64,000 nt of DNA from Psammoneis japonica (Eukaryota), in assembly GCA_008632985.1 (NCBI GenBank), contig QPGO01000005.1, positions 765,607 to 829,606 on the forward strand, written 5' to 3'. The notes below the pieces were generated by a model. The model was not told the DNA's origin, made no database searches, and saw only the letters and a program-made list of their open reading frames with translations. Positions 1-62,079 of this stretch are shown piece after piece. Position numbers and translations under genes: made by a program. The stretch's first letter is position 1; each line of letters begins with the position of its first letter.

Positions 1-952
1 ACAAGATTGAGAAAGAGGGCAAGAGGGCGGCGGCTTAAAAACTCCAGTCACATTGACAGCAGATTAGCATGCCATTTGCATCACTGGTGTTTATTGTAAG
101 AGTCTCAAACTTAACAACCTAACATGCTCTATCATGCGACACCACTGGCAGTTTCGGATCGACGGCAGATTAGCTTGCTGTTTGCACCACTGGCATTCAT
201 TGTGGGAGTCTTAATTTTAACTACTACATCATATGCTCTATCACATGTCACACAACATACAATGGTGTGACACTGCCAATAGTTTCGGATCGACCATTGG
301 GAATCGAAATGCTGCACAACCTGCATCCTTCGTACACGCTTTCCCTAGTGCGCGCTTCTCCAAATTTGAAATTGCTGCATGGTTTCAAACAAAAGAGAAA
401 TCCATAATTCACAATGACACACAATGGAATCAAAGTCATTGGATGTATTGTACAATTTATGTTAAGAATGAAATAAGCAACGGGAAAATCGGTGAAAGTA
501 TCATTGAGATATCACGCCGTAAAGTGGGACACCGGCGGCTCGCATCATTGTGCTGCTGCAGTTTGCTGCGTGCAAATTGACTTGGTAAAACTTTGTGAGG
601 GTTTCGTGTCCCTTGGAAATTGTGCGTGTTGTGTGCGATTGATTATGTGTCTGTGTATGGCACTTGTATGCGTGTCGTGTCCCTCAGGAATTGGGTGTAC
701 TGTCCCTCTGAGTCGGTCTAACACTGAAAATGTGGCGGGAAACCGCAAGGGAAACCAACGGTTTTTTCGTATCACTTTTTGTGTGAACACCTTCGAACTT
801 GTACGAACCCCGATGACGTCGGCCAAATTCATCACAGTACGAGCTCCGAAGTCCAGATTTCTTCCCCCCGCCACCCACACACACACACACAACGAACACA
901 CCACACACCACACACCACACCCGCACGACATGAGAAATCTGAAAGACGCACC

Positions 953-2644
953 ATGACGAAACGGGGTAGCGGAGGCATGCCGGTTGAACCATCCATGTTG
1001 GTCGCAGTGCCATCTCCTGGTCGAAAGCGTCAACGAACTCAGAATGGTGGCGATACAGAGGCAATGATTGAGATTCGTGACGTACCTGCTCATGTGACTC
1101 CCCTGGTGTTTCAGACGCTTCGAGTTGCTACAAAGTTCTTTCAACGCGCCACAGCAGCGGCCGCTGAACCACTCATTGAAGATAGTCAGAGGAATGATAC
1201 TGATATTATTCGCTTAGATACGAGGCAGATAAGCAGTGAAGGAGTTATGGATTCGATAATGTCGCGCATCGAGGCCTCGTCATCAGAAGCGAGTGAAATC
1301 GAAAAGCAAAAGCTAAGAAAACAAAAGATGGACGAAGGCATTAAGGAGTTGATGGAGTGTATTCGGAAAGAAGTTAGGCTGTTCACAAGCACTGACGAGA
1401 AAAAGAGAGAGACAATAAGGACGAGGAAATCCGTTCCCGTTGCTTGTCTAATCTATATCTGCAACCTTTGCAAAACTCATGTTCGTGTTGCCGTCCGTCG
1501 GGCATCACTCCGGACGTTTGGAGTCCTTCTGATGAAAAGTAGCGAGTGCCGAGAATACATGGCACAGGATAGAAACTTACTGGACTGGCTGGAATCCATC
1601 GTTTTCGCTTCTCAGTTTGATGGGTGGAAGAACCCCGACGAGGCTTCGGTTCAAATACCGCTTTTTCAACGGGAAGCCCTCGAGTGGGTCAATGCTCTTA
1701 CCGATCGATACGTATCCTATTACCCCAAACTGCAGGTTGCTCTTAGATACATCGAACAACACTGTCCAAACTTGCGGTACGGGGGGCAAGAAACGACTAC
1801 CACAACAAGCGCACCGGCGGAGTTGCGTCGTTTGCGAGACTTGGCGATCAACCATGGGCGCGAGGAATGTCAGCGCGTTCAGCGACTCGCACAAAAGGCT
1901 CAAACTTACTTGGATATTCTGGTACCAAGATTCGGGCACGATGCAAATGAATCTTTGCAAGAGAGAACAAGTGATGATGAAGAGGAGGAAAGTGATGTGG
2001 ATTGGGAAGACGGAGTGGAAGAAGACAACAACAGCCGATTTGAGCAGAATAATGATTCACACGAGTCCGCCGTGGAACATACTTTGGCTCTCATGGTGAA
2101 TACGGGCGGTGTTCTACAGAATGGCACACTAGAAATTCAATTTGATGTCCAATCAGAAGTACCAGAACAACAACGACAGGAGGAACACGTGCCACCTGCT
2201 GAACAGACGGTCCTACCAAAGCTAGAAAAGATCGTGAAACGCCTCTCACAACGGCGAATGCCCCGCCTCACATCATGGGCAGATGCTCTGATACGAGCAG
2301 ATGGTTTGACGCTTCAGGATGGGGCACTCGTGTTGATGCCTAGTGAAGTTTCTCGTGAACGACGCAGTGTCCTCCAACTGCTCTTGGATACAAAGGCAAG
2401 TGTGGCTACAATTTTTGCATCAGCAGCCCGTCTCTCCATCCAAGGCGATCATGAATCACAAAACGTCATCAGTAGCAGTGTTTCACGAGTACCAGCCCTA
2501 CCTCCAAGAAACGTTGGGGCTGCAAGAACTAGAATCGGTGAGCGAAACCGTCGAGCGATATCAAGGCCACTGATATCGCGATCTACTCAATCTGTTGCTC
2601 GACAACGTTCCAACCGCGTTCAAATAAAATACAGAACTACATGA
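953..2644 (+). CDS. UVSSA-like protein (N-terminal VHS/ARM-like region of UV-stimulated scaffold protein A)
   Basis: Long ORF 779-2644, first plausible ATG at 953. The segments 'VRRASLRTFGVLLMKSSECR', 'QREALEWVNALTDRYVSYYPKLQVALRYI' and 'LDILVPRF' followed by an acidic tract resemble my recollection of the UVSSA N-terminal half. Normal Tyr and TpA content. Confidence 0.55.
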   Translation: MTKRGSGGMPVEPSMLVAVPSPGRKRQRTQNGGDTEAMIEIRDVPAHVTPLVFQTLRVATKFFQRATAAAAEPLIEDSQRNDTDIIRLDTRQISSEGVMDSIMSRIEASSSEASEIEKQKLRKQKMDEGIKELMECIRKEVRLFTSTDEKKRETIRTRKSVPVACLIYICNLCKTHVRVAVRRASLRTFGVLLMKSSECREYMAQDRNLLDWLESIVFASQFDGWKNPDEASVQIPLFQREALEWVNALTDRYVSYYPKLQVALRYIEQHCPNLRYGGQETTTTTSAPAELRRLRDLAINHGREECQRVQRLAQKAQTYLDILVPRFGHDANESLQERTSDDEEEESDVDWEDGVEEDNNSRFEQNNDSHESAVEHTLALMVNTGGVLQNGTLEIQFDVQSEVPEQQRQEEHVPPAEQTVLPKLEKIVKRLSQRRMPRLTSWADALIRADGLTLQDGALVLMPSEVSRERRSVLQLLLDTKASVATIFASAARLSIQGDHESQNVISSSVSRVPALPPRNVGAARTRIGERNRRAISRPLISRSTQSVARQRSNRVQIKYRTT

Positions 2645-3317
2645 ACATACGCTAATGGCGCCGCAGTACGGAAAAATACCTTATTAACCTTTGACAACTG
2701 TTATAATACCTTCTGTACTGCGCTGCAACACAAATCTCACGACAAACTATGCGGAATAACTTACACGCAACTAAAGATCGCTATATTGTACTATTAGTCT
2801 TTCTACTTCTATTGGAAAAGTTTCACAATGTGTTTCAAAATTTTGAAACACACCATTGTCAAAAGTTGATATAGATATCGGTCGCGTAGGGTAATGATGC
2901 CTCAAGAGCGCCATCAAAAGATGGTGCTCAAGCTTTTTCGTATCGTTAGAGTGAAATATCACCCCAAAAAAAGAAAAAGGGGGGACGTAATACGGAGACA
3001 ACAAGAAAACTTGCAAGTCAACCGCTTGCTAAGCCATTCACTCCCTACGAGTGAAGGCTTACCGTGCTACCGTGTCACCGGTACGGCGAAACCCCGATTC
3101 AGCGTTCCATCAACGGTATGATCTGCTCGGCAAGCTCTTGCTGCTTTGCAGACGAACACTTGCTGTCTGTTTCAACAGCCGTGGTCTTGACTGACCAAGT
3201 GAACGGACAACTTCCTACGCTCAAAGACACGAGAGTGACATGGACTCAAGGCCGGAGAGACGCATTCGATTTGCCCCGACCTCCGGACTTAACTGGCAAC
3301 ACCTACGCTACCGATTG

Positions 3318-3611
3318 GAGACAACATGCTATCAAGCAAAATGAGTTGTGGAGCACCAAACAAGAGCGAGTGCTCAATCCAGAGGAAGGGCGAGCCATCC
3401 TTGGCGATTGCGGCACTCAAGCTTGGCGAACAACAACACAACGTGCGAGACGACGAGTTGAAAAGAGAGACAACACTCCATCAAGCAAAATGAGTTGTGG
3501 AGCACCAAACAAGAGCAGGCAATTAGAACCAGAGGAAGGGCGAGCCAACCTTGGGTGTCGCGGCATTCCGGCTTGGCGAACAACAAGCACATCGTGCGAG
3601 ACGACGAGTTG
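3318..3611. repeat. Two diverged tandem copies of a ~149-bp unit
   Basis: 'atcaagcaaaatgagttgtggagcaccaaacaagagc...ccagaggaagggcgagcca...gcttggcgaacaacaa...cgtgcgagacgacgagttg' starts at 3331 and again at 3480. Confidence 0.85.
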
Positions 3612-3654
3612 TGAGCGAAAATCGAGCGCAAAGAATTTCCGAGAGAGTTGTGTT

Positions 3655-3945
3655 TGCCAAGTGGCGCCAAGTAATAGTGTAAAGTAGCGTTGTAAAGTTG
3701 ACTGTTGCTTATGTTGTGAGAAGAAATGAAAGAGATTCGGCTACTCCGAAATCTCGTAGAATTAATACTAAGAAACCGCGTAGAAATATAAAGAAACAAT
3801 CTTTCGAGAGGCATCGAGATGTATCGAGAAAGGAGAAGAGGTTTCTAGAAAGTGTCATCGTTGACATCCTTTTGACACTTTTGACACCAGGCTGACATCC
3901 ACGAATGAATGTACGAATGAATGTAGATGACCGTGATACTCGGCA
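3655..3945 (-). repeat. 3' LTR of element 1
   Basis: tgccaagt...actcggca (imperfect terminal inverted repeat), direct repeat of 8264-8554. Retains most TpA sites. Confidence 0.96.
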
Positions 3946-3956
3946 CTCGCTTCCCC
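3946..3956 (-). other. Polypurine tract of element 1
   Basis: Minus strand reads GGGGAAGCGAG immediately before the 3' LTR. Confidence 0.85.
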
Positions 3957-3966
3957 AATTGAGACG

Positions 3967-6900
3967 TTAGAAGACAGGGTGAAGACGGCGGATGTTGATA
4001 CGTTCAGTGACGTGAGGCGAGCGCTGGATGGTAACGGTTCCATTGGCATGGACACGTACGATGCGGCAAGGACCATCTTTGGTGTTGAGTTTGCGTTGGA
4101 TGTCTTTGGTCACAACGAAGACTTGATCGCCGATGTTGCAGTCGCAAGCAAGACGTTTTGCGTTTTCGCGGAGATTGTTGCGTAGGACATCGCGCTTGCG
4201 ACGGGCATTGATCATTTTCCAGTTCGCAAGACAAGCAGCAGAAATGACCATGTCTCGACCGAAGACAATTTGTCCGGGAGACGACACAAGGGCAGCATGG
4301 CAGGTGCTGCGCAAGGCCCATGCAACAGATTGCAAAATTCCATGAATTGTGTCTTCGTCATGATCGCGAGAAGGGAGATCCATCGCACGGAGAGAATCGG
4401 CTATCACTTGATGAATGCGTTCAACGAACGCGTTGGCTTGAGGATTCTTGATTGTTGCAGGTTTCGGTTTAACACCACAACTGTAGAGGAGATCTGTAAA
4501 CTCGGAAGTGAATTCGGAACCATTGTCATAAATGACAATTTCTGGTCGCGGATGGCGACAAAACCACTCGCGATCGACGACAAGTGAAATGTCTTCGGAC
4601 GTTTTGGACTTGCAGTTCGCGAGTTCGACCCAACGGGTTGCGACATCAACAATTGAAACGGCTCTGATTTTGCGATCGACACCATTCTTGTCGGCACACG
4701 TCCAGGGACCGAAAAGATCGACTTGAGTTGCCTGCCAAGGTTCACAAGCAGTGTCTGGAAGAGGCAATTCGCCACAGTTTGCCGCAGCACGCTTGGATTT
4801 GGAACACGTGCGGCACTTGCGGACAAAAGTGCGGACTTTCGTCTGCATGTCGCGAGTGTAAAAATGTGAAGCCAAAGTTTGGCAGGTGCGATTGGCACCA
4901 GGATGGCAGAGAGTTTCATGGCACCACCGTAGAACTGCAGGAAAAAGCGTTGGAGGGAGGACAATCTTGTCCTTGTAAAGGACAATCTGTTTTCCGTTGA
5001 GTGGTTCAGCTGAGTGGGATTCGGACTTGTCGAGTCGTTGCTGAAGAGCAGAATCTTTTTTCTGATGGTCGGCGACAATGTCGAAAGTAACGGGGAATGT
5101 CGAAGGATCGATTTCCAACGAAGTCATTTCCTCGTAATCGCTTTGATCGACTTGGACAACAGGATGGCGACTCAAAAAATCAGCCACGACATTCTTGTGG
5201 CCTGGCAGGTGCTCGAAAGAGCAGCCGCACTCCTCGAGAAGCAAACGCCAGCGTTTGACGCGTTCTGACTTGAATTTGTCAAATGCAAGATTTTTGTGAT
5301 CGGTGAACAGGTAGCATCGATGACCAAAAAGGATGCTTTTGAAATTTTCGGTCGTTTCCACGAGCGACAGCAGCTCTTTTTCCATTGTCGTGTGGTTTCG
5401 TTGCGCTTGAGACAATTTTCGGCTGTAGAGCGCAATTGGCCATTCGCCATCATCAAATTCTTGAGCAATCACTGCACCAAGTTGACAATCACTCGCATCC
5501 GGATAGATCTTGAAAGGTTGAGAGAAGTCGGGGAATCGGTGGAGGATTTCGCGCGCCACAATTTTTTTCATCTGATTGAAAGCTTCCGTGTGGACGTCAG
5601 TCCACTTGAATTTGACTTTGTCTGATGACAGCGCAGTCAAGGGCGTAAGAGTGTGGCTGCGTCGGCACCACAATTTCTTGCAACAATTCACGAACCCGAT
5701 GAAACCACGTAATTGTCGATGGTTTTGAGGGCGAGCGAAGCGAAGCAAGGGTGGGATTTTCTTTTTCTGAGGCTGAACACCTTTTGCAGTCATGGTGTAG
5801 CCCAAGTAGTCGACGGTCTTGGCGGCGAGATGGGATTCTTCGACATGTGCGTGAAGATTGTTCGTGAGGAGCCGTTGCAAGACGAGTTCGAGTCGTTGAC
5901 AGTGATGGTTGAAGTCGTTCTTGGCAAAGAGGATGACATTGTCGATGCAGACTATGACATCTTCCATGTCATGAAAAATGTCTGTCATGCAAGCTTGAAA
6001 AATGTCGCTTGCCGGTTTGATTCCTTGCGGCAGGCGGTTGCAGCAACACTTGCCCCACGGCAGGATGATGCCGCAGAGTTTTTTCGACTCGTCGTCAAGC
6101 ACGAAGTGACAGCAGCCTCGGTTGAGGTCCAAACATGTCGCACAGGTAAAGCCGTTCATTTTCCATACGACGTCGTCGACAACAGGCAGTGGATGTGGAT
6201 GCCGTTCGAGACACTCGTTGAGTTTCCGTAAATCGGATAAGAAACGGATGCCACCGCTCTTCTTCGATCGGAAAAGACAGGGTGCACCCCAGGGAGAGTG
6301 AAGTTTGCGCGTGGTGACATCGATTTTTTCCAATTCATCCACTTCTTTGCGAGCCATGGGATGTGACGCTTGCGGAATGGTGCAAGCTTTCGCACAGCAT
6401 GGACGCGATCCTGGTTTCAGGGTCAAATGGACGGGTTTGCCGGGCACAGCTCCAAGTGCACCATCAAACAATTGTGGGTGTCGTCCGAAGAGTTTGATGA
6501 GTTGGTGCTGTTGATCGTCATCAAGGTGTTTGCAGCGTAGAACCATGTCGCGACAATTGTGTTTGTCGTGCGCATTGCTCGTCACACCTCGAACCTGACA
6601 GTTGACGGCATTCTGGAAGAACTTGGGCAATTCAGCATCGCCGGGATGAATCGCGTTAACTTCGACTTGGTCGAAAGAGCCCTTGGATCGCATGGATAGG
6701 GTGACATCGTCCCACGTGATTGTTTGATGCCGAAAATCAAAAACGAGTCCCATTTCTGTGGCGGTTTTTCTTCCGATGACAACATCGTGTTTTCCCACGG
6801 CTTTGTCTTCCACACAAGCATCAACGGAAACCTTCTTGGACGATGCGAAGTCTGGGAACTTAAACGTGAGTGTCGCAATCTCGTGCAGATTAACGGCACT

Positions 6901-8190
6901 GTAACGGCCTTTAACGGGAACGTCACATTTACGGATTTTGTGAGGAATCCCGTGAAGGGCTGAGCGCTTCACAAAATTGCGATTTGCGCCGGTGTCGAGT
7001 AAAGCAACACGGAACTTGTGCATTCCAGAATGAGTGTCAATCATCTGGACACGCGCTTCCGTGGTAAGATTGTCTTCTACTTCGGATTCGATGGAATCGT
7101 CTAGAAGAGACGTGACGTCTTCAAAAATGTCGTTGACATCATCTGACGCGATGCCATCGACATCGTTAGAAGCGGAGCGACCAGCTTTGGAGTCCACATC
7201 ATTGTTTTCGACGTTCCGTGTGCGGCTCCGTGTAGGATGGCGGTGTGTCGGCTCGTTTCGAGAGTTATTTTGTTGATTCGGCGCATTCCGATTTGCGCGG
7301 TTCCGCTCATAATTTTCACGTTCACGACGGATGACATTGCACTCTTGACCGTTCGGATGTACAACGCCATGGATTGGACATGTTTGTCCACGATTGTTTT
7401 GGTTCCTGTTCCTGGCATCGCGATTTTGGTCGTCATTCTGGCCGCGACGCGTATTTCGACCGTTGTTGCGTTGACTCCGATTGTTGTTGCGTCTGTTGTT
7501 GTCGGTGGACCCTTTGTCACCACGTTGTTCCATGCGTCGGAGAGTCTCGTAGCATTGAGCTTGGTCGTTCAAGTTTAAGTTGCGAAGACGGGCTTTAGTC
7601 TGAGTTTCGGCCCATGATCTTGGTCCACATTTTCGAAGGATCATGGACAATTCCGCTTCCGTGAATGACGGAACTCTTTCGGCGTCATCTTCGGATGGCG
7701 CAGGCATGATGTTAATCAACTTGTTAAAGCAACGGATGTCATTGACAAATGACTTGACAGTTTGGTTCCTGGGTTTCTTAAGGCTTTGAAGCCATTCCTT
7801 GGTGTCAAGGGCAATTTCTCCATCCATGCATTGGAGTAGAAATTCTTCACGACAAGTGTCGAATGTAACTTGGTCGCGGTTTTCGCATTCGTTTACAATG
7901 ATTTCCCAGTCGTCTTTTGGTGTTCCGGTCATAAGTCTGGTCACGAGCCGGAAACGTGGCTGTCCTTCAGCCGCACCGAGATCGTCGACAAGTTCATCGA
8001 AGTTTGACCAGAAGGTAAGAACATCTTCCGGTTCAGTTGAAGCTAACTTGCGCACCTCGATCGCAGTTTTAAGCCCATCTGGATCGTCAGGATCAATGGG
8101 GCTTTCAAAAGACACGAATTGGTCTTTGCGTTGCTCTTCCTCAGAGCGGTCAGGATGCTTAAGTTCGAATGGGCAGTTTTCTGCTGACAT
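3967..8190 (-). pseudogene. Gag-Pol polyprotein, open (1407 aa) but probably inactive
   Basis: Gag CPIH-x-H-x-C knuckle, protease LLDTGA, RT (PWGAP, DLRKLN, LDLNRGCCH, RLPQG, CIDN in place of YIDD), RNase H (DASD, FTDHKNL) and integrase (HHCC, DLFG, DNGSEF, VER). Conserved Tyr residues are replaced by Cys/His and a catalytic RT Asp is Asn. Confidence 0.93.
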
Positions 8191-8263
8191 GTCTGGTCAG
8201 GACAATGTGATCGGCAGATGTGTCTCAAGAGAGATGAACAAATGTTTGGGAGTGAATTTGCCA

Positions 8264-8554
8264 TGCCAAGTGGCGCCAAGTGACAGTGTAAAGCAGCGTT
8301 GTAAAGTTGACTGTTGCTGACATTGTGAGAAGAAATGAAAGAGATTCGGCTGCTCCGAAATCTCGCAGAATTAATGCTGAGAAACCGCGCAGAAATGTAA
8401 AGAAACAATCTTTCGAGAGGCATCGAGATGCATCGAGAAAGGAGAAGAGGTTTCTAGAAAGTGTCATCGTTGACATCCTTTTGACACTTTTGACACCAGG
8501 CTGACATCCACGAATGAACACACGAATGAATGTAGATGACCGTGACACTCGGCA
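8264..8554 (-). repeat. 5' LTR of element 1
   Basis: Direct repeat of 3655-3945. Followed on the minus strand by TGGCAAATTCAC, a PBS-like sequence starting TGG (tRNA not identified). Confidence 0.96.
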
Positions 8555-8806
8555 GTGTTGTGTCATGACCGTTGCTAAATTTCTCAATCACTGTCATTTT
8601 GTGTAACTTGGTGGAATTAACACCATGATTTCGTATGTAGAAGATTGGTGGGAACTCGGCACTTTCAAAATTGTTGCTGATTCCTTCGCACACTTTACGG
8701 CAACCATGCAAAACGCAAAAAAACTGCCGCCGAGCGACGGACGAGCTCCGGAATTTCGAAATTCTTCATCTTCCATTCTGCATCCTGATCCTCGCCGAAC
8801 GATGAG

Positions 8807-11800
8807 ATGAGCGAGTCATCAAATGACAACCACAACAACGAAGGGCTGGACCGCTGCACTCCTGTGATTGATTGTCAGCGTCAATTGTTTCTGTGTGACA
8901 AATCCACAACAAAAACAAGCAAGCGTGTGGTTCGCGGTGAGCACGCAAAAGGATCCGGCGGAGCAATCTGTCGTCACAGTTCTCACTTGGGTTGGAAGGG
9001 GAAAGAATTGAAAACGAAGACAAGAGCAGTGGCTGGTGCCGCATCAACAACGTCCTTGTTCCAGAAGCTCCGCGACGACGTCAGCCGTTCCTGGGAGACG
9101 CAAGGTCACCCGTCCAAGCAAGTGGTGGATTTGGTTGTGTCTGTTGCCAATTCTTCAACTTCTGCTGCAGCCCAAAAGGCATGCCACATGCCCTTGTTGA
9201 AGGACAAACATCCTCGCGCAACCCCCGTTCAGAGCCCCCCACAAAGAAATCTGTCAAGTGGTTCAAGTCTCGGCAGTGCCAATTCTCTCTGTTTCCTGCT
9301 GTCAGTTGATTTCCAAGTGATGGAAGCCTTGGCCAAAGTGCCAAGGATCTGCCTGGGAGTGAGTCAGATCATGCCTCACATCTGTTTCCCAGCACAGGCA
9401 CCAGGCATGAAGCCACACTGAACACCATGGTCGACATGTGCATGGGGCTGAATCTTGGTCGACTCGCGCATCATGAGAGCATCCACAAAACTCACCCCGA
9501 GATCGTAGAGACCTTCGAGTTTGTCAAAGACATTGACAACCTTGAAGAATTCTCTGTTGGAGGAGCAGATGAGGATGGCAATGCCACTTGTGTCATTGCT
9601 GTCATTGTGTGCAAGACTCCTTTCAAAGTGAGTGGTCAAAATGTGTTGGTGTCATTTGGGCTGGCCAAGTCCGCAGCTGCCAATGCAATTTTGGGTTTGC
9701 CTTTTCTTTGGGCCACCAACAGCACTCTTTTCATGCATTGTGAGTCTGAAGAAACTTTGTTGTGCCAAAGGTCAGGTCACACCTTCCCAGCACACTGTCA
9801 GGTCCCACATCGAGCGGACCAAGCACCCTTGACAGGCGGCATGGGGTCTCAAGCGGCTCATGCGTTGTCACCGTTGGATGCAACGTGGAAACCCATTTCC
9901 GATGCTGCAGAGCGCCCCCAAGCCGAAGTCAAGGTCTCCATGGCGCCAGAAGCTAAGCAGCAGCTCAACATCAACCAAGGATGCATTGTTTTCAATGATT
10001 TGTTGGAATTCTTCATGTCTGCCCAGTGTGAAGATCCTGGCATTCCAAACCCCGAACACAATTTCATTCCTAAAGTTGAACAAGACGAATGAGAGTTGCT
10101 TTCTAGCCCAACCTTGGAGTCATCATTTTGCTTGTCAAGTCCTTGTGTGAGCATTGTGCTGGCGTTTCAAGGTCTCTTGTGGCGTCAAGCCAGTCTATGT
10201 GCATTCTTGATCGACTCTGCAAGAACATGTTGCGAGCCCTCTGTGTCATCTGTGTCTTCTACATTCAAGCCTTTATTTCCATCTAAACCGTCTCCAAGTT
10301 TACAAGGTGCTGTTTGCACCTCAAAGAAAATTTGGTGCCCGAAGCTCCCGTCGCATCATGTCAAACCCGACAATTGTCCAGATCCATTAGATGGCATGGA
10401 GGTCATCTTTAAAGAACACGGCTGTTCCCCAAGGAAGTCAGTTGCAGCTCTTCAGCCTCGCGATGATGTGTCATCCAATGGAACCCCAAGCCATGTCAAG
10501 CCGAGTTCAATCAAAACATCCGGTGGTTGGACTGTCCCGAAATTCACAAGCCAAGAATCACAGAAACAATCCACAAGCATTGGGATGCATTCTGTGAGGA
10601 AGGGCTGCAAAAACATGTTCGTGGTTTCTCATGTCGAGTTGACACAGGAGATGTTGTCCCGACATCTTGCAAACCACCCCGTTGTGGTCCGCACAAATCC
10701 AAGATCATGATGAAGCCACTCGACCATCTCAAAAACAACGGTTTGATTTCTCGCAATGATGAAAGTCCTTGGGGAGCTCTCATTGTCCCAGCAGCAAAGC
10801 CTTGCCAAGAAACAACACCCTGGCACCAGCACATTTGGTGCCTCTGTGCATCTTGCCGTTGACTGAACCAAGTGACTCGACCTTTCAACTTTCCAATTCC
10901 TTGTTGCGATGATGCCACACAAGATGTCCCGCCACAGGCAAAACATTTTCTCAGCTTCAACCTTGACTGCGGGCATTGGCAAGTGCAGTTGAAAAAGGCT
11001 TCACAAGCTGAGACAGTGTTCTTCACACCAGAAGGCAAGAGTCATTGGAACGTCATGCCAGTGGGGATCCTCAATGCGCGTGCTGTCTTCATGGCAATGA
11101 TGGCAGCTCTTCGAAAAGAGTGGAACCATGCATTTTTCAGACAGCATCCCGACTCAGACGAGAATGACGTTGGCACTCATGTTGTGGTCTGACCATGTGG
11201 TTCTGAGGTCATCGTCGACGATGTCATGTGTCATGCCACCTTGACTGATTTGTTGTTTCAACATTTTGAAGAAGTCCTTCAAATTCTTCTTCATCATTGC
11301 ATCACCATAAAACTCAAGAAGTGCAAGTGGTTGTCTCCATTCATGGAATTTGTTGGGGTTGACGTCCACCGTGACGGAAATTCTCTGGCCCATTCTAAAT
11401 TGGATGCATTCTGCACTCTCCCACCACCCGAGACATGGGGAGACTTGTGCATGTTGATTGGCACCTTTGGTTTTTGTCAAAGTTGGATTGAACGGTTTGA
11501 GGCAAGATTGATTCCGTTCAGACGCCTTCAAGTCCAACAACCGCAACCAGATGCTGTGGATCTAGAAGCAGAACAAGCCTTCTTTGCCAGATTCTGGCTC
11601 CCCGAACATCAAGAATTGTTTGACCAGCTGAAGCAAGACATTTTGTCGGGTTTGGTTTTGGTGCGCCCGGGCTGCAACCGTCAGTTCTACGTTGAGACCA
11701 ACTGGAGCAAAGATGTTGTTGGAGCTGCCCTGCTTCAAGCTGATCCCAATGATCTCACAGCCAAAGAAGCTGAACTCACTGAAGTCCAGGGTGGTCCATG

Positions 11801-14302
11801 CTTTTTCGATTTGCAATGTTTCTCGACGTGTGGTCTCCCGGTGATGTCCCTGACCAAGAAGGCAACACGAAGTTCCTCACACACCTGGACTGCATCACTT
11901 CTTTTGCTGTGGCAGATTTTTTGTCTTCCACAGTCAATTCGGAGTCCGTCGGCCAAGTTGTCATGAGCAAGTTTTCATCGTGTGTGGCCTGTCATGGCTG
12001 ACTGTTGTCGATGCTGACTTGCTGTTTGCTGGAGTGTTCAAACGTCTGTTTCAACTGCTGCGAGTGCTGGTCAAACCCGTGTCACGCGAAAACCACCGTG
12101 CTGTCCGCAACGAGCATTTTCACTGCTGTCTCCACAAGACAGAGAGAATCAACTTGGCAGATGCAAGTCAGTTGACACTTTGGAAGCTCGGCGTTCTTTT
12201 CACTGTGTGTGCATGGAACGTGTCTCCTGTTGACACTGCTGACATCCCAAGGTTGCCAGCAGCTGTTGGACGTGAGTTTCCTTTTCCTTTGGACATTCAA
12301 GCTCAACCGATTCATGACTCAGCCTCAGTGCCACAACATGCTCTCAAGCATTTTGAATTGACTGCTCCATTGCTGTTCAAGCAGCATGAGTTGTTGAACA
12401 CATTGAATGATGAGCGGCGTCACAGGCACATTGAACTAAAAAATGAATGCCGAGCATGCCGCGAGTTCAATCCAGGAGATGTGGTGTGTGTACGAAAACA
12501 AGTCAAGTCGGACAAGTCACAAGACATCTCCGCCAAGCTGTCATTTTGCACTGAGGGTCCATGCAGAGTGCTTGAAAAGGTCTCCCCTGTTTCTTGCAAG
12601 ATGCAAAAGCTGCCCTTTGTCCAAGGATTGGGTCGCCCCAGACGGTTTCACAAAGAGAATGTCACGCGAATGATGCTGTTGCCATCCACAATGATTTTTC
12701 ATAAGACAGCTGACGGTGCTGACACTCGTTTTTTGCATTTCCACTCTGAGATGGCCGGTTCTCCTTTAGAAAAGTGGCTGGGAAATGTCCCACGCGGTGG
12801 CTGCTCCAAGGCCGATGCAGGAGAAGACTTTGCATTTGAACCTTTGCAAAGCATTTGGTCCGACAAGCCTCCAGTTGAAACCAATTCCTCGGGTTCAGAC
12901 TCTCAAAATCAAGCCCAAGAGTTGGAGACAGTTGACGACCCAGACAGTGACTCAGACGAGGAAGGCTCTGCAACCAACGCAGCGCCTCTCCCTGCTCTGG
13001 TCCCCGGCACAGTTCATCCAAGAACCAAGCAGTTTTTTGCCAAGTTGCACAAGTCCATGTCCAACTCGACTGCCAAGATGTTTTTTGTTGCCTGTCATCC
13101 CCAAGCTCAAGTGACTCCCATGCTCGGCACAGGCACAAGCAGATTGGCCCGAGTCCAATCATTGTCACGCTGCTGCTCAAGGTGTGTGTGACGTGCGTTG
13201 GTGGGTGCAGCAGCACTCAGATCAGAGTTCAAGGTCGTCAGTTAACAGCAGGTTCTGGCTGGACGTTCACAAGATCTGCACCAATGGTCGAGACCCAGAG
13301 CCTTTCCCAGTTAGACCTCAGAAAGTGGATGAAATTTTAGCAGCAAATGACACTCTCGTTTGGCCATCTGCCCCTTTCCCTTTGGCTGAGCATTTCGTGG
13401 TGGGACCATTTGATTTGTGCAAGGCGCATGTGGGACTTCAAGTCCCAAAGCGTCAGGCAGTCTCTGAAGCCTGCCACATTGACAATGTTCATTGGACGAG
13501 GCTCGAACAAGAAGCCCCAAAATTTTGACTCGACGCATCGCATGTTCGACACACCCCGGATTTGTTGCCGGATCGGCAAATGCATTCAGTGCATTGCATT
13601 CATTTTCTTTTCAGTCCAACATTTTGCACTCCATTCCAAGTGTCAGTTTAGGCACTTTGTATCCAGTCTATGACCAAGGAGTTATCGGCTCAGGAGTTGA
13701 TGCCCCAAGTTCGAGCTCTGACAGCTGGAATTGTCTGCCAGGCGTGAGACGAGAGTTTGACTCATCCAAGCCATCGCGGGACTCTAGATCCCTTGCACAC
13801 TGGTTTGATTCCGACGCCATATGAGGGCTAGTGGAAAACGGTTGCAAGGATCCGGTGCTCTGTACAACGTAGCGTGGATGTGTCTGGTGTGGGGGTGTGC
13901 GGTGAGTGCGACGCCCTTCGAATGCGCGAAGTTTCAGACTCCATGCGTTGTGGAACCCTGAGGCATCTGATGTGGCTCTGCTAGTTATGACAGAGGTGAA
14001 GACCATGTGACAGGATAGCCCTAAAAAATTTTCTTGTCAAGAACATGGGAGGACGCAATCTGTCCTCTAACTTTTGTGCTGTGAGAGCCTGCTCTTTGGA
14101 AAGGGGGGTGTCGACAGCGTCCGTCAGTAGTCCGTGAGGACATGCGAAGCGAACTGAGTCGAGTTGATCGTGGATACGACGACGTGACACTCATCGTGTT
14201 CTCGCACAATCACAATCACTCGACATCAGTCTGGTGACAATCTTCCTTGTGTGCGGTACTACTCGTTTTCTTTATAACACAACGTTGTGGTTTTGACTGA
14301 CA
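8807..14302 (+). mobile_element. Older degenerate Ty3/Gypsy-like retrotransposon (different family)
   Basis: Frameshifted pol fragments: RT ('PWGALIV', 'LNQVTRPFNFPIP', 'NLDCGHWQV', 'WNVMPVG', 'VIVDDV'), RNase H ('FYVETNWSKDVVGAALLQA') and an integrase-like ORF at 11980-13191. PPT-like GGAAAGGGGGG at 14098-14108 precedes a putative TGTC...GACA LTR at 14109-14302. No matching 5' LTR was found and the left boundary is uncertain. Confidence 0.8.
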
Positions 14303-19226: not shown

Positions 19227-19593
19227 TGCACTATGCTCGAAGAACGAGTGTAAACGAAAGTAGAATAGTGTGCGAAAAGTGGAAATTATAAGATTAAATT
19301 TTGCTCTGTGATTTTTGGTTTCTCCGAACGAGTTCTCAATGGCCTAAAGCTTCTGTACTGCTTCTACAGACAAAAGGCCTTTCGGAGAATATATTCGTGA
19401 CAACAGATTGTCCGGATACGATTGCTATTGACACGTAAGATGTCAACATCGTCAATCGATCGTATTTGCAATTCTCGACATCCGATCAACTCTGTGTGAT
19501 CGTTCTGTCCTTTGTACGCATCCACGACTGTGGTACGATTGACATATAAATAATATATAATCATAAATATGTATATAACAGTCGCATACTGCA
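19227..19593 (-). repeat. 3' LTR of element 2 (TpA intact)
   Basis: Direct repeat of 22463-22829, about 30 TpA sites. Confidence 0.96.
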
Positions 19594-22462: not shown

Positions 22463-22829
22463 TGCACTGTGCTCGAAGAACGAGTGCAAACAAAAGTAGA
22501 ACAGTGTGCGAAAAGTGGAAATTATGAGATTAAATTTTGCTCTGTGATTTTTGGTTTCTCCGAACGAGTTCTCAATGGCCTGAAGCTTCTGCACTGCTTC
22601 TACAGACAAAAGGCCTTTCGGAGAATGTGTTCGTGACAACAGATTGTCCGGGTGCGATTGCCATTGACACGTAAGATGTCAACATCGTCAATCGATCGTA
22701 TTTGCAATTCTCGACATCCGATCAACTCTGTGTGATCGTTCTGTCCTTTGCACGCATCCACGACTGTGGTGCGATTGACATGCAAATAACACACAATCAC
22801 AAATGTGCATGTGACAGTCGCATGCTGCA
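22463..22829 (-). repeat. 5' LTR of element 2 (TpA converted)
   Basis: Direct repeat of 19227-19593, only about 7 TpA sites left. Confidence 0.96.
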
Positions 22830-22833
22830 AGCC

Positions 22834-25800
22834 AACGAGCCATGCAGCTCTCAAGCGCTGCTCTCATGTTGCTCTCCAGACAACCCTGGGGACCGATGCC
22901 CTCAAACTGCATTTTTTGTTTGGTTGGTTGGTTGCACCAGTGTGTGTCCTTTCTCTCTGCAGCAGTTGGAATTTCAGGTCTCACTCTGGCATGCACTGAG
23001 CGAGTGGGGGCTGCATCTGGACCCCACATGTTTGTCGTTGTTGCACCACTCTGCCACCAACCTCAGCGTGTTCCCTGTGCTTGAACCAAGATCTTCAACA
23101 CTCTGAGTTTGCAGTTGTTTTGCTGGTTTGTTGCACAAGGGTGTCCTTTCACTCTGGAGTCAGGAGTTTCAGTTCTCAATCTGGCATGGATGAAAGTGAC
23201 AGGTGGCTGCAACTGCGCCAGATGAGCCTTCTTGCAGCACTCCATCACCATTCTCAAAGAATTGCCTGGGTTCCTTTGAAGACCTTCAGTGCCATCAGCA
23301 TGCAATTGTTGGGTTGGTTGGTTGGTTGCATCTGAGTGTTCTTTCTCTTGGGTGTCAGGAGTTTTTCTGCTTTCACTCTGGCATGCATTCAGTGCCTGGT
23401 GGCTGCAAATGCACAAGATGGGCTGTGCAACACTCCACCGCTGTTGTCAAAGTGTTCCATGGGATCCTCTAAAAACCTTCAATGCCCTCATCAGCACGCA
23501 GTTGTTGGGTTTGTTGCTTGCATCAGGGTGTTCTTTTGCTGTGGATTCAGGAGTTTCTGTTCTCACCACGTCATGGACCAAGTGCCTGATGGTTGAAACT
23601 GCACCAGATGGGCATTGCAACACTCCACCACCACTCTCAGAGTGTTCCTTGGGTTCCTCTGGATGCATTCAATGCCCTCAGCATGCAGTTGTTGGCTTGG
23701 TTGTTTGCATCAGGGTGCTCTTTCACTGTGGATTTGGGAGTTTCTGCTCTCACCATGTCATGGATTAAGTGTCTGGTGGCTGCAACTGCACCAGATGGGC
23801 ATTGTGGCACTCTCTGCCACTGTTCTTAAAGTGTTCCCTGGGTTTCTCTGGACACATTCAATGCCCTCAGCATGCAGCCATTGGCTTGGTTGTTTGCATC
23901 AGCGTGTTCCTCGCTGTGGATTTGGGAGTTTCTGCTCTCACCATGTCATGGATCAAGTGTCTGGTGGCTGCAACCGCACCAGACGGGCATTGTGACACTC
24001 CAACACTGTTCTTAAAGTGTTCCCTGGGTCCTTGGAAGACCTTCAATGCCCTCAGCATGCAGCTGTTGGGTTGGTCATTTGTGCCAGGGTGCCATTTCTC
24101 TCAGGAGTCATCAGGAGTTTTTCTCTGCTCTCACTCTGGCATGCACTGAGTGGCTGGCGGCTGCAACTGCACCAGATGGGCCTTGCACTCCTCCACCACC
24201 ACTCTCAAAGTGTTCCCTGGGTGCTTTGAAGAACTTCAAAGCCCTCAGCATGCAGTTGCTGATTTGGTTGTTTGCATCAGGGAGTTCTTTCACTGTGGAT
24301 TCAGGAGATTCTTTCTGCTCTCATCATGTCATGGATTGAGTGACTGGGGGCTGCACCCACACCAGATGAGCCCTTCAACACTCCACCGGCACTGTTGTCA
24401 AAGTGTTCCCTGCATCACTCTAAAGACCTTCAGCACCCTCAGCATGCAGTTGTTGCGCAGTTTGTTTGAATTGGGGTGTTCATTCACTGTGGATTCTGGA
24501 GTTTCTGCTCTCCTCACCATGTCATGGGTTGAGTGCCTGATGATTGCAACTGCACCAGATGGTCGTTGCAACACTCCACCACCACTCTCAAATCATTCCA
24601 TGGGATTCTCTGGACACATTCAATGCCTGGACACATTCAATGCCCTCAGCATGCAGTTGTTGGCTTGGTTGTTTGCATCAGGGTGTTCCTTCGCTGTGGA
24701 TTTGGGAGTTTCTGCTCTCACCATGTCATGGACTGAGTGCCTGGCGGCTGCAACCGCACCAGATGGGCATTGTGACACTCCGCCACTGTTCTTGAAGTGT
24801 TCCCTGGGGCCCTTGGAAGACCTTCAATGCCCTCAGCATGCAGTTGTTGGCTTGGTTGTTTGCACCAGGGTGCCATTTCTCTCAGGAGTCATCAGGAGTT
24901 TTTCTCTGGTGCTCTCACTCTGGCATGCATTGAGTGACTGGCAGCTGCAACTGCACCAGATGGGCCTTGCAACACTCCACCATCATTGTTGAAGTGTTTC
25001 CCGGGTGCCTCCAAATGACTTCAATGCCCTCAGCATGCAATTGCTGGCTTGGTTGTTTGCTTCTGGGTGTTCTTTCACTGTGGATTTTGGAGATTCTGCT
25101 CTGACCATGTCATGGATCAAGTGACCGGTGGTTGCAACTGCACCAGATGGGCCTTGCAACACTCCACCATCACTCTTGAAGTTTTTCCTGGGTGCCTCCA
25201 AATGACTTCAATGCCCTCAGCATGCAATTGTTGGCTTGGTTGTTTGCTTCTGGGTGTTCTTTTGCTGTGGATTTGGGTCATGGATTGAGTGACTGGTGGC
25301 TGCAACTGCGCCAGATGGGCATTCTGACACTCCAACATTTTTCTCAAAGTGTTCCATGGGTTCCTCCAAAGACCTTCAATGCCCTCAGCAAGCAGTTTGG
25401 GACATTTGATTGCATCAGGGTGTTCTTTCACTGTGGAGTTGGGGGGGTTCAGCTCTCACCATGGAATGGATTGAGTGACTGGGGGGTTCACTCTGGCATG
25501 CATTTAGTGCCTGGTGGCTGCAAATGCACAAGATGGGCCTTGCAACCTTCCACCACTGTTCTCAAAGTGTTTTCTTGGACTGTCCAAAGACCTTCAGTGC
25601 CCTCAGTCTGCAGTTGTTGGGTTGATTGTTTGCACCAGTGTGTTCTTTCTTTGATGAGTCAGGAGCTTTCTGCTCAAACTGCGGCATGCATTGAGTGCAG
25701 CCTGGTGGCTGCAACTGCACCAGGCAGGCCTTGCAACACTCCACCACCCTTCTCAAAGTGTTTCCTGGGTGCCTTCACAGAACTTCAATGCCCTTTAGCA

Positions 25801-26130
25801 TGCTGTTGTTGGGATGGTTGGTTGCATCAGGGTGTTCTTTCACTGTGAAGTTGTTGGGGGTCTCAGCTCTCACCACTCTCACCATGGCATGGATTGAGTG
25901 ACTGGGGAGTGCAGGTGCACCAGATGAGCCCTTCAACACCCACCCCTCATTCTCAAAAGGGAGACCTTCAATGCTCTCAGCTTGCAGTTGGTTGGTTGGT
26001 TGGTTTGGTTGTGTTGGGGTGCTCTTTTGCTGGTGGCTTTGTCTTGTGCAGCTGCACTGGGCAAGTCTTGCCACTCTCAATCACTGTTCTTGAGTGTTCC
26101 CTGGCTTTCCATTGGGATCTTCAATGCCCT
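22834..26130. repeat. Diverged tandem array, ~190-bp unit, about 17 copies
   Basis: Recurrent 'ggctgcaactgcaccagatggg', 'ccttcaatgccctcagcatgcagttgttgg' and 'gcatcagggtgttctttcactgtggatt' at roughly 170-205 bp spacing. TpA and CpG are both nearly absent. Confidence 0.9.
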
Positions 26131-29100
26131 CAGAGAGAACATTGGCACAAACAGACAAAGATGCTTGTGTTCTTTCTGTTTTTCCCCTGTGGCATGAACA
26201 CATGATCATCCCATGCACACCAGTGTAGAAACCAGCGCAGATTCTGCGTGCAGTTTTTGTTGGGGGTTGTTTTGACCGGCGATGTGTCACTTGGCTTCTT
26301 TTGTTTTTCCTGCTGAGGGAGTCCTCCAAAAGAGACAATGGACAACCAAGAAAGCCACAACACAGCTTGTTGACAAACAGCACTGCAATGATGCAGTGAG
26401 ATCCCAAGATCTGCACTTTTGTTCAATTCCAACATTCATCTGCAGCAGTCCTCCAGAGCAAATGACACAACATGCACCACACTGCAGCGCACTGCACACA
26501 AGGACTGGCAGGTGTAGCAGAGAGAGAGAGAGAGAGAGAGAGAGAATGCTGTGCACAATGTGGCCATTGGTTTGTTGTGACATGCCATTGGCCGTTGCTT
26601 TGCTTGGTTGATTGTTGCATTGGTTTGGTGTGCTTTCAACTTTCAGACACCCCTCAAAACTCAGAAACAAATGCTTGCAGGACTGGCGACTCTTTGGCAG
26701 GATGAAAAAAAAAACAGAAAGCCAGGCACCAGCAGAGTGCTGTTTTCTCCCAAAAGATTTTGAGGTGGGTCACAGCAATCACAGAGGTTTGCATTTCTTC
26801 AGCTGGGGGCAAGCACAAGCATCTTTGTTCTGCTGCTGCAGTTGTTGACAACTCCAACACTGTGCAGGGATGTGACCCAAAAGTGTGCACCCTGCTGAGC
26901 AAGTGCTTTTTAAGAGCTTGCAAAGTCAGGCAACATTTTTTTGCACAACTTTGTGTTCCATCTCTCATGTGGAAGAATGAGAACATCCGGGACACCAACA
27001 ACAATCTAGTTGTTGCACTGTCAGCAAGAATTTTTGAACTGCAACCAGGTGATTTCTCTGTTTGATCCAAGACTGTGCCAATTTGTCAAATCTACATTCG
27101 TGAAATGTTCAACAACAAACATGTTCATTCCTGGGTTCAACAATTTTTCTCCACCACATGGACAAGACCACAGTGCTGCAGTTTTTGTTCATGTCAAGTC
27201 CTGAATGAAGTGCACCCACTTTCCTGGATCCAATTCTCTGCTGCAGCCATGCATCAAGTTTGAAATTCTTCTTTGCTCCAAATTTTTTGCTCCCTGTCCA
27301 TGCCATTCTTTTTTTGTGCGATGACCCCTTGCACTGCTCTTCTTCATGGTGGTGTTTTTGGCCCTGCTCTTCACCAAGTGAGTGCTGCACCATGTGATTG
27401 ATGTTTGCTTTCATTGCATTTTCCCCAATGTTTTTCTCCAACAACACACTTCATTGGCGGTGCAGTCTGATGGCCTTGTTTGTCCCTGGTGCAAATGTTC
27501 TCAGGGTTCAGCTCTAAGTGTGGTCTCAGCCAGCATGCTGCCACCAACTGCCTCTTTTTCATTGGTCCAACCAACTCTTTTGGTTGTCTGCATGGTTTTG
27601 ACTCTGAAAACCAGGTGAAGCATCACCTTTCTCATCACTGCACTGCTTCTGCTGCTCTCCTTTGCCAGGAGCACAGTCTTGCTGCTCACTGGATGCTGCC
27701 TCTGTTGCCTCTCTTGGGTCTCCAATGCCAACAGACCCAAATGTCCCCATTGCCAAGTTCCCTTTTCCAACATTTCCCTGCATCTTCAGAAGCATGCACC
27801 CTGCCGTGAGAAGGAGGAAGCATCCCTTTGATGCTCTGCTGCTGTTTGGGACCAAATGCCATCAACTCATTTTCCCCGCAGACAATGACACATTTGGCAA
27901 GACAATGACAACCACCCAACGCTTGGTTTTGCCAACGACAAGCCCCACAAGCCCCTCCTTCCTGAAGTCCATTTGAATCCAGATCCACCTCCTCCCATGC
28001 ACTCCAACAAGAGCCCTTCTCCTGTTGGCTCCCCCTCCACTGGAAACCACCTGCACCCCCCCTGTTGAATGCTCTGGTTGCTTGTGTGCTGCTGTGAATG
28101 CCCAGCAACTCATCTTGTTTGCCAACGATGGTGTGTCTGCCCTCAGAGAGGACAGTCCTGTGGATGTTCTTGAGTTCATTGCAGCTGATTCTCTTGATGA
28201 TGCTTTGGGCCCTCCCTTGATGTCACATCCAGCAGAAGATGCAGCTCCTCCTGCTCCTTTCTGCACTCTTGACCGGGTTGCAGTTTCCTTGACAGCCTTG
28301 GCAAAAAAATTGAAACTCGCTGTCCCTCCATGTGACTCCACACACCACCACTGGCAACTCATGACAGCCAAATGTTGATGCTTGATTGCTGGCATGTGTT
28401 GGTGCAAAGGGAGTGTGCACTCCAGCAATTGCTGCAGCTCACTGCTGCCATGTCTGTGTGACAACAGCACAGCATTTCACCTTTGGATGAGAGCAGAGAA
28501 TGTGCAAATTTGTGGACAAGCGGGTTGTTGAATGTGCACAGACATCCATTGTTAAAATGTGGAGCTGTTCTGTTTGGGCAATGGCTGCAGCAGTTGGAGA
28601 GGGAAGGCATCAGAAAAGAACAGGGAATGGCTGATTTAGTTGTGAACAAACAAAGAAGAGAGAACAGTCAACTCGGTTGTGAACAAACAATTGCAGGGCA
28701 AGGAGCAAATTTAAAACCATGGGAATCTGCGGTTGTGTGTCAGAAAAGAGTGGGGAATGGCCAACACAGTCATGAGTGACAAATTGCAGGGCAACAAGAA
28801 AATTTTAAAACTGTGCAAATCTGTGGTTGTGCATGTGAATCACTTGCAATGGAGCACAATTCAAAACAGTGGAAGGTTTTGAAAAATTCAAATGTTGAGT
28901 TAGAAACATGCACTCAAAATGATGCAAGCACCTGTTCAAGTCAATCTGCTGGGAGAAGCAAGCAATGGCAAAACAGAGAAGATCACTTGCAAAGTGCACT
29001 CGTTTTGCAATTTCTTGTGTCACAAACCAGATGGAGTGCAGCAAATGGTGCAACACAAGAGTCACCTGTTGGAGTGGGAAAGAAGATGGGAGGAAATGGT

Positions 29101-29854
29101 TGTGTCACAGGAGTGACAAAGCAAGATGGTGGGAGCATGACATCATGCAGCAAGTTGGGTTGAGGAGGGCAGGACAAAGAACATCAGATGCACCAACAAG
29201 TTGGAGTTGGCTGCTTTGGCATGCTTTGCAGCTGCCATGAGTCCTGTGGTGGTGGGGTTGTTTGATGTGCAAACAAGCAAGTGTGTGGGAAATTGAGCCA
29301 ACTCCAGTGTCAGCAGGCAGGGACTCAAGTTCTGTTGTGACTCCCATGGAGGGATGTCATGCAATGGATTGAGCTCCAGCAGCTGGCAAGAAATTGACAG
29401 GGTCCATGTTGATGGAGGTGGTCAATGAAAGTGTGTGGCCACATTGCAAACTCACAATCTTCAACAGAGTGCTTGCGGTGGGAGGAGAGCACATGAAAAT
29501 GGTTCTGCAGGAGTTGAGGAGCATGGCATCTGTGCCAGAGGCATTCTGGGATGCATGCAAAGAGGCACTCAGGGAAAAACTCAATGAAGGCAAACTTGTC
29601 CAAGGAGGCACACAGAAGAAGCACAAGAGAGAGAGAGGATGAATGGTCTGCACCAACGGGAGAGGACCTGCCCTTGCAGCCAGTGGCTGCCAGCAATGGC
29701 ACAGAAACAGCTGCAGCCATGGCAACAAACCAAGCTGGTGTGTGAATGTAAAATGCAGCAAATGGCAAAATCTGGAACATGGCAAAAACAAAGAGGCAAG
29801 GTGCAAGGCAATGGACTGTGGAGATTTGAAAAAATGGTCGCACTCGGCCTGTCC
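26130..29854. mobile_element. Unclassified, heavily mutated repeat/transposon relic
   Basis: Near absence of TpA and CpG, no intact gene. Ends in a ~36-45 bp sequence that recurs inverted at 31631-31675. Confidence 0.5.
26519..26545. repeat. (AG)13 microsatellite
   Basis: Perfect AG dinucleotide run. Confidence 0.95.
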
Positions 29855-30169
29855 TTCCATGCGTTCACAAAACTTGTGTAGGATTCTACGTACGTAATAT
29901 TACGTGGGGCGATACTGAAATGGCAGTCGCACCAATCAGGCCTCATTCAAATATGCGTGAGGCCAACGCAAAGCAAACGGCACTTTCACGATGATGATGA
30001 TGCGGCGGCGGCGTCTTCAGTACGTTCCCGTAGCCATACCACAGTATATGCTTCTAGATGTGACAATGTGTTGGAAAGTTTGAAAGAGATCTGTCTCATT
30101 GGTGGCGTCTCTGACGGTGTTGTTTTCAACATAAATTTATGGACTGGACTATATATTATGGCAGGGCTG

Positions 30170-31370: not shown

Positions 31371-31630
31371 CACACCAACCGTCGGCGGCGGGATCTTGAG
31401 ATGACCGGTGACGACTCGTGGAGAGATTGCTTGGGGGTTTCAATGCAATTATGTGTTTAAAAAGCAGTGCTTTAGATTATTAACGTAGCTCTTAATGATG
31501 GTGATCTCTTGTCTATATATTCTTTTGATGATGTGGTGTAATAGTGTCTTCTTTTTAGCATCGCGGCCGATGATTCACCACACTAGCTACTTGCACCACG
31601 TCTGATTTTTCACCTCGGATGTATGGCGAC

Positions 31631-61664: not shown

Positions 61665-62079
61665 GATGTTGTTATGAGGTTAAGTTTGAACGGTACGGGC
61701 AGAGGTGAAGGTGGTTGTGAGAGCCTCTTGGTTGGGAAGATAACGGCGGCAAAATCTTGTGAGTTGTGGTGTCACCAATCGCGCAACAGCTGTGAAAGAA
61801 GCGTCCGTTCTACACAGATTCTGGTATTACCTCTTGCTATGTGCAAAGAAGATGCCAGATGTTATGTACGGGCGGTGCGTTGGATTTCTTACTTTTTACA
61901 CAGCCCGTTGGTACAACTTGTACAGCGGAATCTTTTGAGGGTCATTTTGCTGTCGTAATGAAGAATGCGCAAATGGTTAGGTTACACAACGGCAGAAGTT
62001 GACAAACGAAAAGGCTCCACGTGGAGTGAACAAAACGCAAGAAGCGACAGTTCTACAGTAGTTGGGGGGTCGATCCAAC

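Follow-up and report, generated by a model that had tools for sequence, protein, structure and literature searches.

Evidence for conversion of TpA to TpG and CpA after insertion in a Ty3/Gypsy retrotransposon family of the diatom Psammoneis japonica

The two long terminal repeats (LTRs) of a retrotransposon are both copied from one template at insertion, and whatever separates them must therefore have arisen later. Why, then, do the LTRs of one element of the diatom Psammoneis japonica differ solely at TA steps, almost all of which now read TG or CA in one repeat or both? The element occupies positions 3655 to 8554 of what we call the window, the whole 64,000-nucleotide stretch analyzed here (GenBank assembly GCA_008632985.1, contig QPGO01000005.1, positions 765,607 to 829,606, forward strand). 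The original prediction for this locus saw in it a young insertion in which TA had already been heavily converted, and we have followed this idea through the LTR pair, the family, outside proteins, and metagenomes. The parts of the element are as follows.

3650..3654, no strand: left target site duplication (TSD) GTGTT, adjoining the left LTR.
3655..3945, minus strand: 3' LTR, 291 bp, with 18 of 23 family TA sites kept, 4 turned to TG, and 1 to TT.
3946..3956, minus strand: tract rich in purines, immediately ahead of the 3' LTR and, to judge from position and composition, likely the polypurine tract.
3967..8196, minus strand: stop-free gag-pol frame of 1409 amino acids, with reverse transcriptase (RT), RNase H, and integrase in Ty3/Gypsy order.
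8264..8554, minus strand: 5' LTR, 291 bp, with 17 of 23 family TA sites converted (8 TG and 9 CA on the plus strand).
8555..8559, no strand: right TSD GTGTT, adjoining the right LTR.

With LTRs that begin with TG and end with CA, a TSD, and the RT, RNase H, and integrase order, the element is a Ty3/Gypsy LTR retrotransposon, and the minus-strand orientation of its gag-pol frame makes the left repeat the 3' LTR, in agreement with the original prediction. Pairwise alignment bore out the published reading of the repeats in every count: both are 291 bp long, they align without a gap, their duplications (3650-3654 and 8555-8559) are identical, and they differ at 17 positions. Twelve of these read TA on the left and TG or CA on the right (3673, 3675, 3685, 3743, 3757, 3767, 3770, 3781, 3788, 3822, 3912, and 3937), two sites that read TG on the left and CA on the right (3712-13 and 3910-11) supply another four, and the last is a single T/G transversion (3710/8319), which we can now add is a family TA site as well. 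Transitions at TA sites thus account for 16 of the 17 differences, and all 17 fall inside the 46 of 291 columns that make up family TA sites (chance p 1.3e-15), with zero differences in the remaining 245 columns. The comparison even hides some of the change, as two further sites read TG in both repeats. Counted against the family, the 5' LTR has lost 17 of its 23 TA sites and the 3' LTR 5, and between the LTRs 166 of 227 TA sites are converted. Next to the 5' LTR, positions 8257-8263 of this copy resemble the start of a TGG-type primer-binding site on the minus strand; since 11 of 18 family junctions carry two TA steps there, the resemblance is itself likely a product of conversion.

The LTR pair alone gives no direction, and on its own would allow a process resembling repeat-induced point mutation (RIP), acting by C>T on the 3' LTR. 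RIP is a C>T change, mainly CpA>TpA. The family decides this question. Among 40 LTR matches in the genome, 36 were aligned (15 whole elements contributed, plus 6 single LTRs), after one truncated match, one partial match, and two matches of 76-79% were dropped. At each of the twelve TA-versus-TG/CA positions, TA is the commonest allele in the 34 other family LTRs (22 to 33 of 34). Site 3712-13 reads TG in 14, CA in 11, TA in 9, and CG in 0, and site 3910-11 reads TA in 20, CA in 9, TG in 2, and CG in 1, with 2 gaps. These counts support the proposal that an ancestral TA was hit on opposite strands at both sites and exclude the ancestral CG that had been left open for them. The transversion column holds A in 32 and G in 2 (T in 0), implying a family TA that now reads TG in the 5' LTR but TT in the 3' LTR. 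TA is thus solidly established as the old family state at all 17 differing positions, and the consensus, on which the original prediction had staked its case, is TA at most of them rather than TG/CA or CG.

Outside proteins point the same way. At 19 Tyr positions conserved in 120 outside homologs, the window copy has 12 Cys, 4 His, and 3 Tyr, while no homolog has more than 4 Cys and His together, and Trp is kept at 15 of 15 positions conserved in the 14 closest homologs. The TA family state, the Tyr outgroup state, and the intact Trp codons rule out a change from CA or TG to TA.

Across the family we compared 14 copies, a set without L044 (89% identical, treated on its own) and without L045-L050, which were not retrieved as complete single elements. 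Their 273 TA sites, scored with 14 single-TA column pairs left out and seven pairs with TG and CA and neither TA nor CG counted as TA sites, comprise 2,387 TA, 766 CA, 599 TG, and 1 CG cells, so that 1,365 of 3,752 TA, TG, or CA cells are converted. By comparison, CpG decay affects 112 of 5,045 cells at 365 CpG sites. Changes outside TA, counted on private alleles because alleles shared inside a sub-lineage inflate A>G, are rare: 37 of 29,824 cells for A>G, 38 of 20,387 for non-CpG C>T, and 9 of 7,715 for C>T before A. In the paired LTRs of the 14 elements, 103 of 112 substitutions lie in TA columns, 102 of the 112 being TA-site transitions, and there are 4 indel columns besides. All 14 copies are hit, to between 13% and 68%, their paired LTRs are unequal, and their ends are spared relative to their interiors. 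The window copy ranks highest (187 of 273 TA sites) and also shows the most CpG decay of the set (23 of 365), and L044 is 83% converted with 120 CpG decays. The claim of a young, heavily converted insertion therefore needs qualifying: it is heavily converted, but it is young only in the sense that its LTRs show no difference outside TA sites, and it is the most converted and most CpG-decayed of the 14. Matching 5-bp TSDs were found in 10 of 15 elements, and 8 of 15 are exactly 4,900 bp long.

Several observations bear on when the changes occurred. LTR sites converted on both sides are in the same state 10 times and in different states 8 times. Among 4,748 comparisons between pairs of copies, 2,958 show the same converted state, while site frequencies by themselves predict 3,020; with no excess of sharing, we reject the idea that copies inherited their conversions from a parent. 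Editing of RNA or cDNA before insertion might be suggested by the lower conversion of LTRs than of interiors (123 of 643 versus 1,242 of 3,109 cells, in every context class), which resembles a cDNA-editing gradient. Against it, both strands are hit equally without strand runs, paired LTRs differ, and the TSD of element L041, which is host derived, carries TA in one of its copies and CA in the second; editing before insertion is ruled out on these grounds. Taken as one class, RIP-like change of the 3' LTR and editing before insertion are extremely improbable. Two elements, L039 and L043, have one flank in common (900/900), as well as four private alleles close to the 3' LTR, while their other flank differs; together with its mismatched TSDs, this marks L039 as a recombinant or an assembly chimera.

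Nor is there evident selection on codon position across the 14 copies, where conversion by codon phase is 332/788, 197/616, and 692/1,593. Conversion at Tyr-codon positions (42%) resembles that at codon junctions (43%), as expected for copies without selection. Conversion is patchy along copies. CpG decay tracks it across copies (rho 0.85, n=14) and follows it weakly inside them (22 of 500 shuffles reach the value), while other changes show no clear rise (rho 0.41, p 0.15).

The neighboring bases provided us with a fingerprint of the process. Counted per A, conversion reaches 593/2,346 (25%) in TAT and 484/2,165 (22%) in TAC, against 145/1,248 (12%) in TAG and 143/1,745 (8%) in TAA, a preference for T-A-pyrimidine. 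Accordingly, RTAY sites, which are hot on both strands, have 602 of 1,176 cells converted, while YTAR sites, cold on both, have 60 of 417; at such symmetric sites the strands are balanced, with 304 TG versus 298 CA and 33 versus 27, respectively. Outside TA, private A>G amounts to 15/11,586 at AA, 10/7,714 at CA, and 12/10,524 at GA, against 18% per A in TA. ApT accounts for 25 of these 37 changes, and A before G for none (0/5,706). The changes fall in TA-converted patches of the same copy (0 of 500 shuffles reach the value for ApT, 17 of 500 for other A), a tendency not shared by non-CpG C>T or by transversions (427 and 465 of 500 shuffles). Double hits in TATA lie on the same strand in 46 of 61 cases versus 34.5 expected, the TATA bin being one of five compared, and no strand coordination is seen beyond TATA (297 of 582 neighbors 12-50 bp apart versus 305.5 expected). 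The picture is one of many separate small hits.

This fingerprint weighs on two rival sources of A>G. The first is an error-prone eta-type polymerase that would make A>G at W-A words while filling repair patches; in its favor, both strands are hit, conversion along a copy is patchy, and no word is hotter for eta than TA. However, eta raises A>G at AA as well as at TA, and here AA is no hotter than CA or GA and lies over 100-fold below TA, which speaks against it. Private states other than TG or CA at TA sites number 5 against 1,365 conversions, and C:G sites outside CpG show no rise in converted patches. We regard a polymerase of this kind as improbable. The second is an ADAR/ADAT1-type editase that would act where repeats are silenced, on the DNA in RNA:DNA hybrids, and the genome does contain two separate A_deamin (PF02137) loci of ADAT1/ADAR type, C40 (L060) and C79 (L062). 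ADARs favor UAG. TAG is cold here by comparison with TAT, and the absence of private A>G with a 3' G likewise speaks against ADAR; moreover, no RNA-binding domain was found in the frames scanned. In its favor, U is the preferred base before the edited A, as stated in the B. natans preprint discussed below (bioRxiv 10.64898/2026.01.13.699255). On balance, we consider an ADAR-type enzyme quite unlikely.

Traces of the same rule were found outside the diatom genome. We examined 78 metagenome loci that encode related pol proteins, and one of them, L130 (positions 1-3793, contig Ga0163148_10034640), has a TA observed/expected ratio (o/e) of 0.41 and Cys or His at 9 of 25 scored Tyr positions. Among its surviving TAs, the RTAY class stands at 4/171 versus 33/183 for the YTAR class (p 8.6e-7), a ratio of 0.13, with the next lowest of the 78 loci at 0.93. 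Compared with the 72%-identical L119, it shows 97 changes from TA to TG/CA and 23 in reverse, against 80/86, 36/24, and 58/59 in control classes. Being only 29% identical to the search protein, L130 belongs to another Gypsy lineage. The neighbor-rule signal is missing in the other 77 of the 78 loci, and six pairs of direct repeats in four metagenome loci show no TA bias; such contigs probably merge copies.

Could the pattern be produced by long-read assembly errors at modified bases? In favor of this reading, only 0.48 of the words sampled from 2600-9600 occur in sequencing run X1, a run of unrecorded platform that may represent the source sample itself, and its listed contigs carry mostly family TA alleles over the element, none of them having been seen with those of the window copy. 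Of the other runs, X2 yielded only 13 pieces and X3 none. Beside the element lies a second feature on which the same run can be consulted:

8979..13400, no strand: remnants of older retroelements, nearly devoid of TA, neighboring the element and outside it (RNase H match at 11193-11966).

One X1 contig matches the TA-poor sequence of this block over about 4,420 bases, differing from it by 25 letters and 1 gap, and so confirms the block. Conversion that ranges from 13% to 68% between copies, rising with CpG decay and reaching 83% in L044, is not what assembly errors would yield, nor is the exact 4,900-bp length of 8 of 15 elements. The same neighbor rule holds in the metagenome contig L130, and the signature arose de novo in B. 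natans lines checked by Illumina and Sanger sequencing (same preprint). Assembly error is therefore very improbable. Taking these data together, we hold it highly probable that the process acts after insertion, is specific for TpA, works on both strands, and follows the T-A-pyrimidine rule, the remaining doubt going to artifact. Another X1 contig joins 3649 to 8555 in the form of an empty target site, a joint that may come from another copy of the surrounding repeat rather than from an empty site. The element is inserted in this separate repeat (3000-3654 and about 8555-8700), which has 41 matches in the genome, with numerous X1 contig joints spanning the insertion point.

What might carry out such a process? 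The best explanation, in our view, is a host enzyme of the TadA/ADAT2 type that would deaminate adenine in silenced, probably CpG-methylated transposon DNA, and we would give it an even chance on the sequence evidence. In this scenario, after insertion the deaminase would turn the A of T-A-pyrimidine into hypoxanthine on briefly unwound DNA; the lesion would stay unremoved, and replication would fix G, giving TG or CA depending on the strand. As one hit destroys the TpA, each site would be hit once and the targets would run out. Such a mechanism would make no new stop codons: Tyr codons would become Cys or His codons, and these together with altered LTR sequence would disable the element while its frame stays open. 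The TadA8e editor provides a precedent, as 94% of its genome-wide off-targets are A>G/T>C and favor TA (PMC13225742), and amphioxus ADAT2/3 deaminates A in DNA (PMC10354150). The P. japonica genome contains an ADAT2-like gene (L056) that, across an apparent intron, carries HAE, PC, and the Asn at the DNA-editing position (best PDB match ADAT2, E 1.6e-11); this Asn corresponds to the residue needed by amphioxus ADAT2 for DNA editing (PMC10354150). We infer a link to methylated chromatin and a defensive role.

The principal competitor places the target on the other base of the pair. Thymine might be modified, for example oxidized, or T:G mispairs resolved against T in purine-T-A words, giving T>C. 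All context counts fit this equally, since purine-T-A is the reverse complement of T-A-pyrimidine, and the genome has 27 matches to C5 DNA methyltransferases (PF00145), several of them with stops; a diatom DNMT4 is related to fungal RID, its function being unknown (PMC9998398). No TET/JBP match was found in the genome, a weak negative as no control was detected, and a known enzyme class already gives A>G at TA (TadA8e, PMC13225742). We know of no chemistry that gives T>C solely before A. We consider attack on T unlikely.

A number of points weigh against the adenine deaminase and the role we give it. Sequence cannot by itself separate attack on A from attack on the opposite T. An ADAT2-like gene is expected in any eukaryote, and the DNA-editing Asn is common to eukaryotic ADAT2. 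The search of the genome for deaminases returned what looks like an ordinary set, with no unusual or fused form and none tied to the pattern, and no ADAT3 partner was seen among the matches. Amphioxus ADAT2 prefers other words (TCG and GAA) and also edits C (PMC10354150). The lack of strand coordination beyond TATA implies that there are no long single-stranded tracts. Loss of TA in the 1-kb flanks does not predict conversion of element ends (rho -0.28, p 0.15, n=28; paired 6/14), and spreading from TA-poor flanks is unsupported for the same reason. The X1 contigs listed over the element do not individually confirm the 17 alleles of the window copy. As to defense, 7 of the 14 copies keep the full 1409-codon stop-free frame.

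By reading frames, the other deaminase genes are a TadA-like gene (L053) and dCMP, guanine/nucleoside, and RibD-type genes. In L055 (313-1785, minus strand), a frame of nucleoside/guanine-deaminase type runs by eye into an apparent 2-oxoglutarate/Fe oxygenase domain. Counting for the adenine deaminase, the hypoxanthine glycosylase family PF02245 had no match in the genome, in a search whose control was detected in 4 of 14 genomes; this does not show absence.

Within the 64-kb window, TA loss is confined to selfish DNA and genes are spared, some TA-poor blocks being of unassigned nature. Per kilobase, TA o/e is 0.03-0.13 over 9001-13000, 0.15-0.29 in the element, and 0.46-0.79 in the gene-bearing part (38,001-62,000). 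Almost no TA and little CG occur at 23000-30000, 32000-37000, and 62000-64000 (TA o/e 0.00-0.14 per kb), and most of the TAs that survive in the first two of these blocks are YTAR. The first block includes, at 23-26 kb, units of about 190 bp repeated in tandem. Between two TA-free blocks, a repeat array at 30000-31500 has TA o/e of 1.26 and 0.59 per kb, apparently spared or newer. A second LTR-like pair (19227-19526 and 22463-22762) is 96% alike; 11 of its 13 differences are TA versus TG/CA, with TA always in the left copy, 1 is CG versus CA, and 1 is A>G at ApT. Left of the element, a 638-codon open frame (728-2644) has normal TA content and no Pfam match. The genome also has 24 silicon-transporter matches (best E 2e-208), in keeping with a diatom.

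If a host deaminase is responsible, it would be an adenine editor of DNA that occurs in nature and also a defense of eukaryotes against transposons, opposite in direction to RIP. Such an editor might even serve as a genome defense common to distant algal lineages (rhizarians, diatoms, and the host of L130), a sort of "adenine RIP" rewriting T-A-pyrimidine in silenced selfish DNA until none is left; this wider proposal is tentative, and we think it somewhat likelier to fail than to hold. As described in the preprint, the B. natans case rests on two viral inserts in one alga, with no enzyme named. The part-converted diatom LTR family gives direction, post-insertion timing, strand symmetry, and the T-A-pyrimidine rule, which narrows the candidate enzymes, and the recurrence of this rule in an unrelated Gypsy element from a metagenome suggests a process wider than two species. 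There is a practical consequence as well: as all 17 differences of our LTR pair come from the TpA process and none from background change, dating by LTR divergence fails in such genomes.

Among known systems, RIP of Neurospora and other ascomycetes resembles the process in that dinucleotide-specific transitions pile up in repeats after insertion, and diatoms encode the RID-related DNMT4 (PMC9998398). It differs in that the direction is opposite, no stops are made here, and the LTRs of one element are very unequal (17 versus 4 of 23). TadA base editors and amphioxus ADAT2/3 likewise cause A>G in genomic DNA (PMC13225742 and PMC10354150), but TadA8e is engineered and untargeted, and amphioxus ADAT2 has other words and edits C.

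The closest parallel is the alga Bigelowiella natans, whose integrated nucleocytoplasmic large DNA virus and virophage DNA is hypermutated (Mettrop et al., bioRxiv 10.64898/2026.01.13.699255). According to the preprint text, 231 of 302 mutations in mutation-accumulation lines fell in two integrated viral regions, almost all were A>G/T>C, all of those at TpA, and the de novo rate was about 1000-fold over background and active in some lines only; TpA-poor genes were enriched for RT and DDE domains, and ADAT2 was proposed. Both cases show A>G/T>C at TpA on both strands of foreign or selfish DNA, with patchiness and TpA-poor blocks rich in CpA and TpG. They differ in that B. natans is a chlorarachniophyte with single-copy viral inserts, while ours is a diatom with a multicopy LTR family, and in that the evidence there is de novo, while here it is comparative, with conversion that reaches near saturation and a comparative ratio of over 100-fold per A. 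The 3'-pyrimidine rule is not reported in the main text of the preprint as examined, and the terms "diatom," "LTR," and "retrotranspos" are absent from its text. No report of TpA hypermutation in diatoms was found in the literature searched, most subscription papers lying outside it. The TpA hypermutation spectrum is thus already in print for B. natans; new are its polarity, resolved copy by copy in an LTR family of a diatom, and the recurrence of the neighbor rule in 1 of 78 metagenome Gypsy loci.

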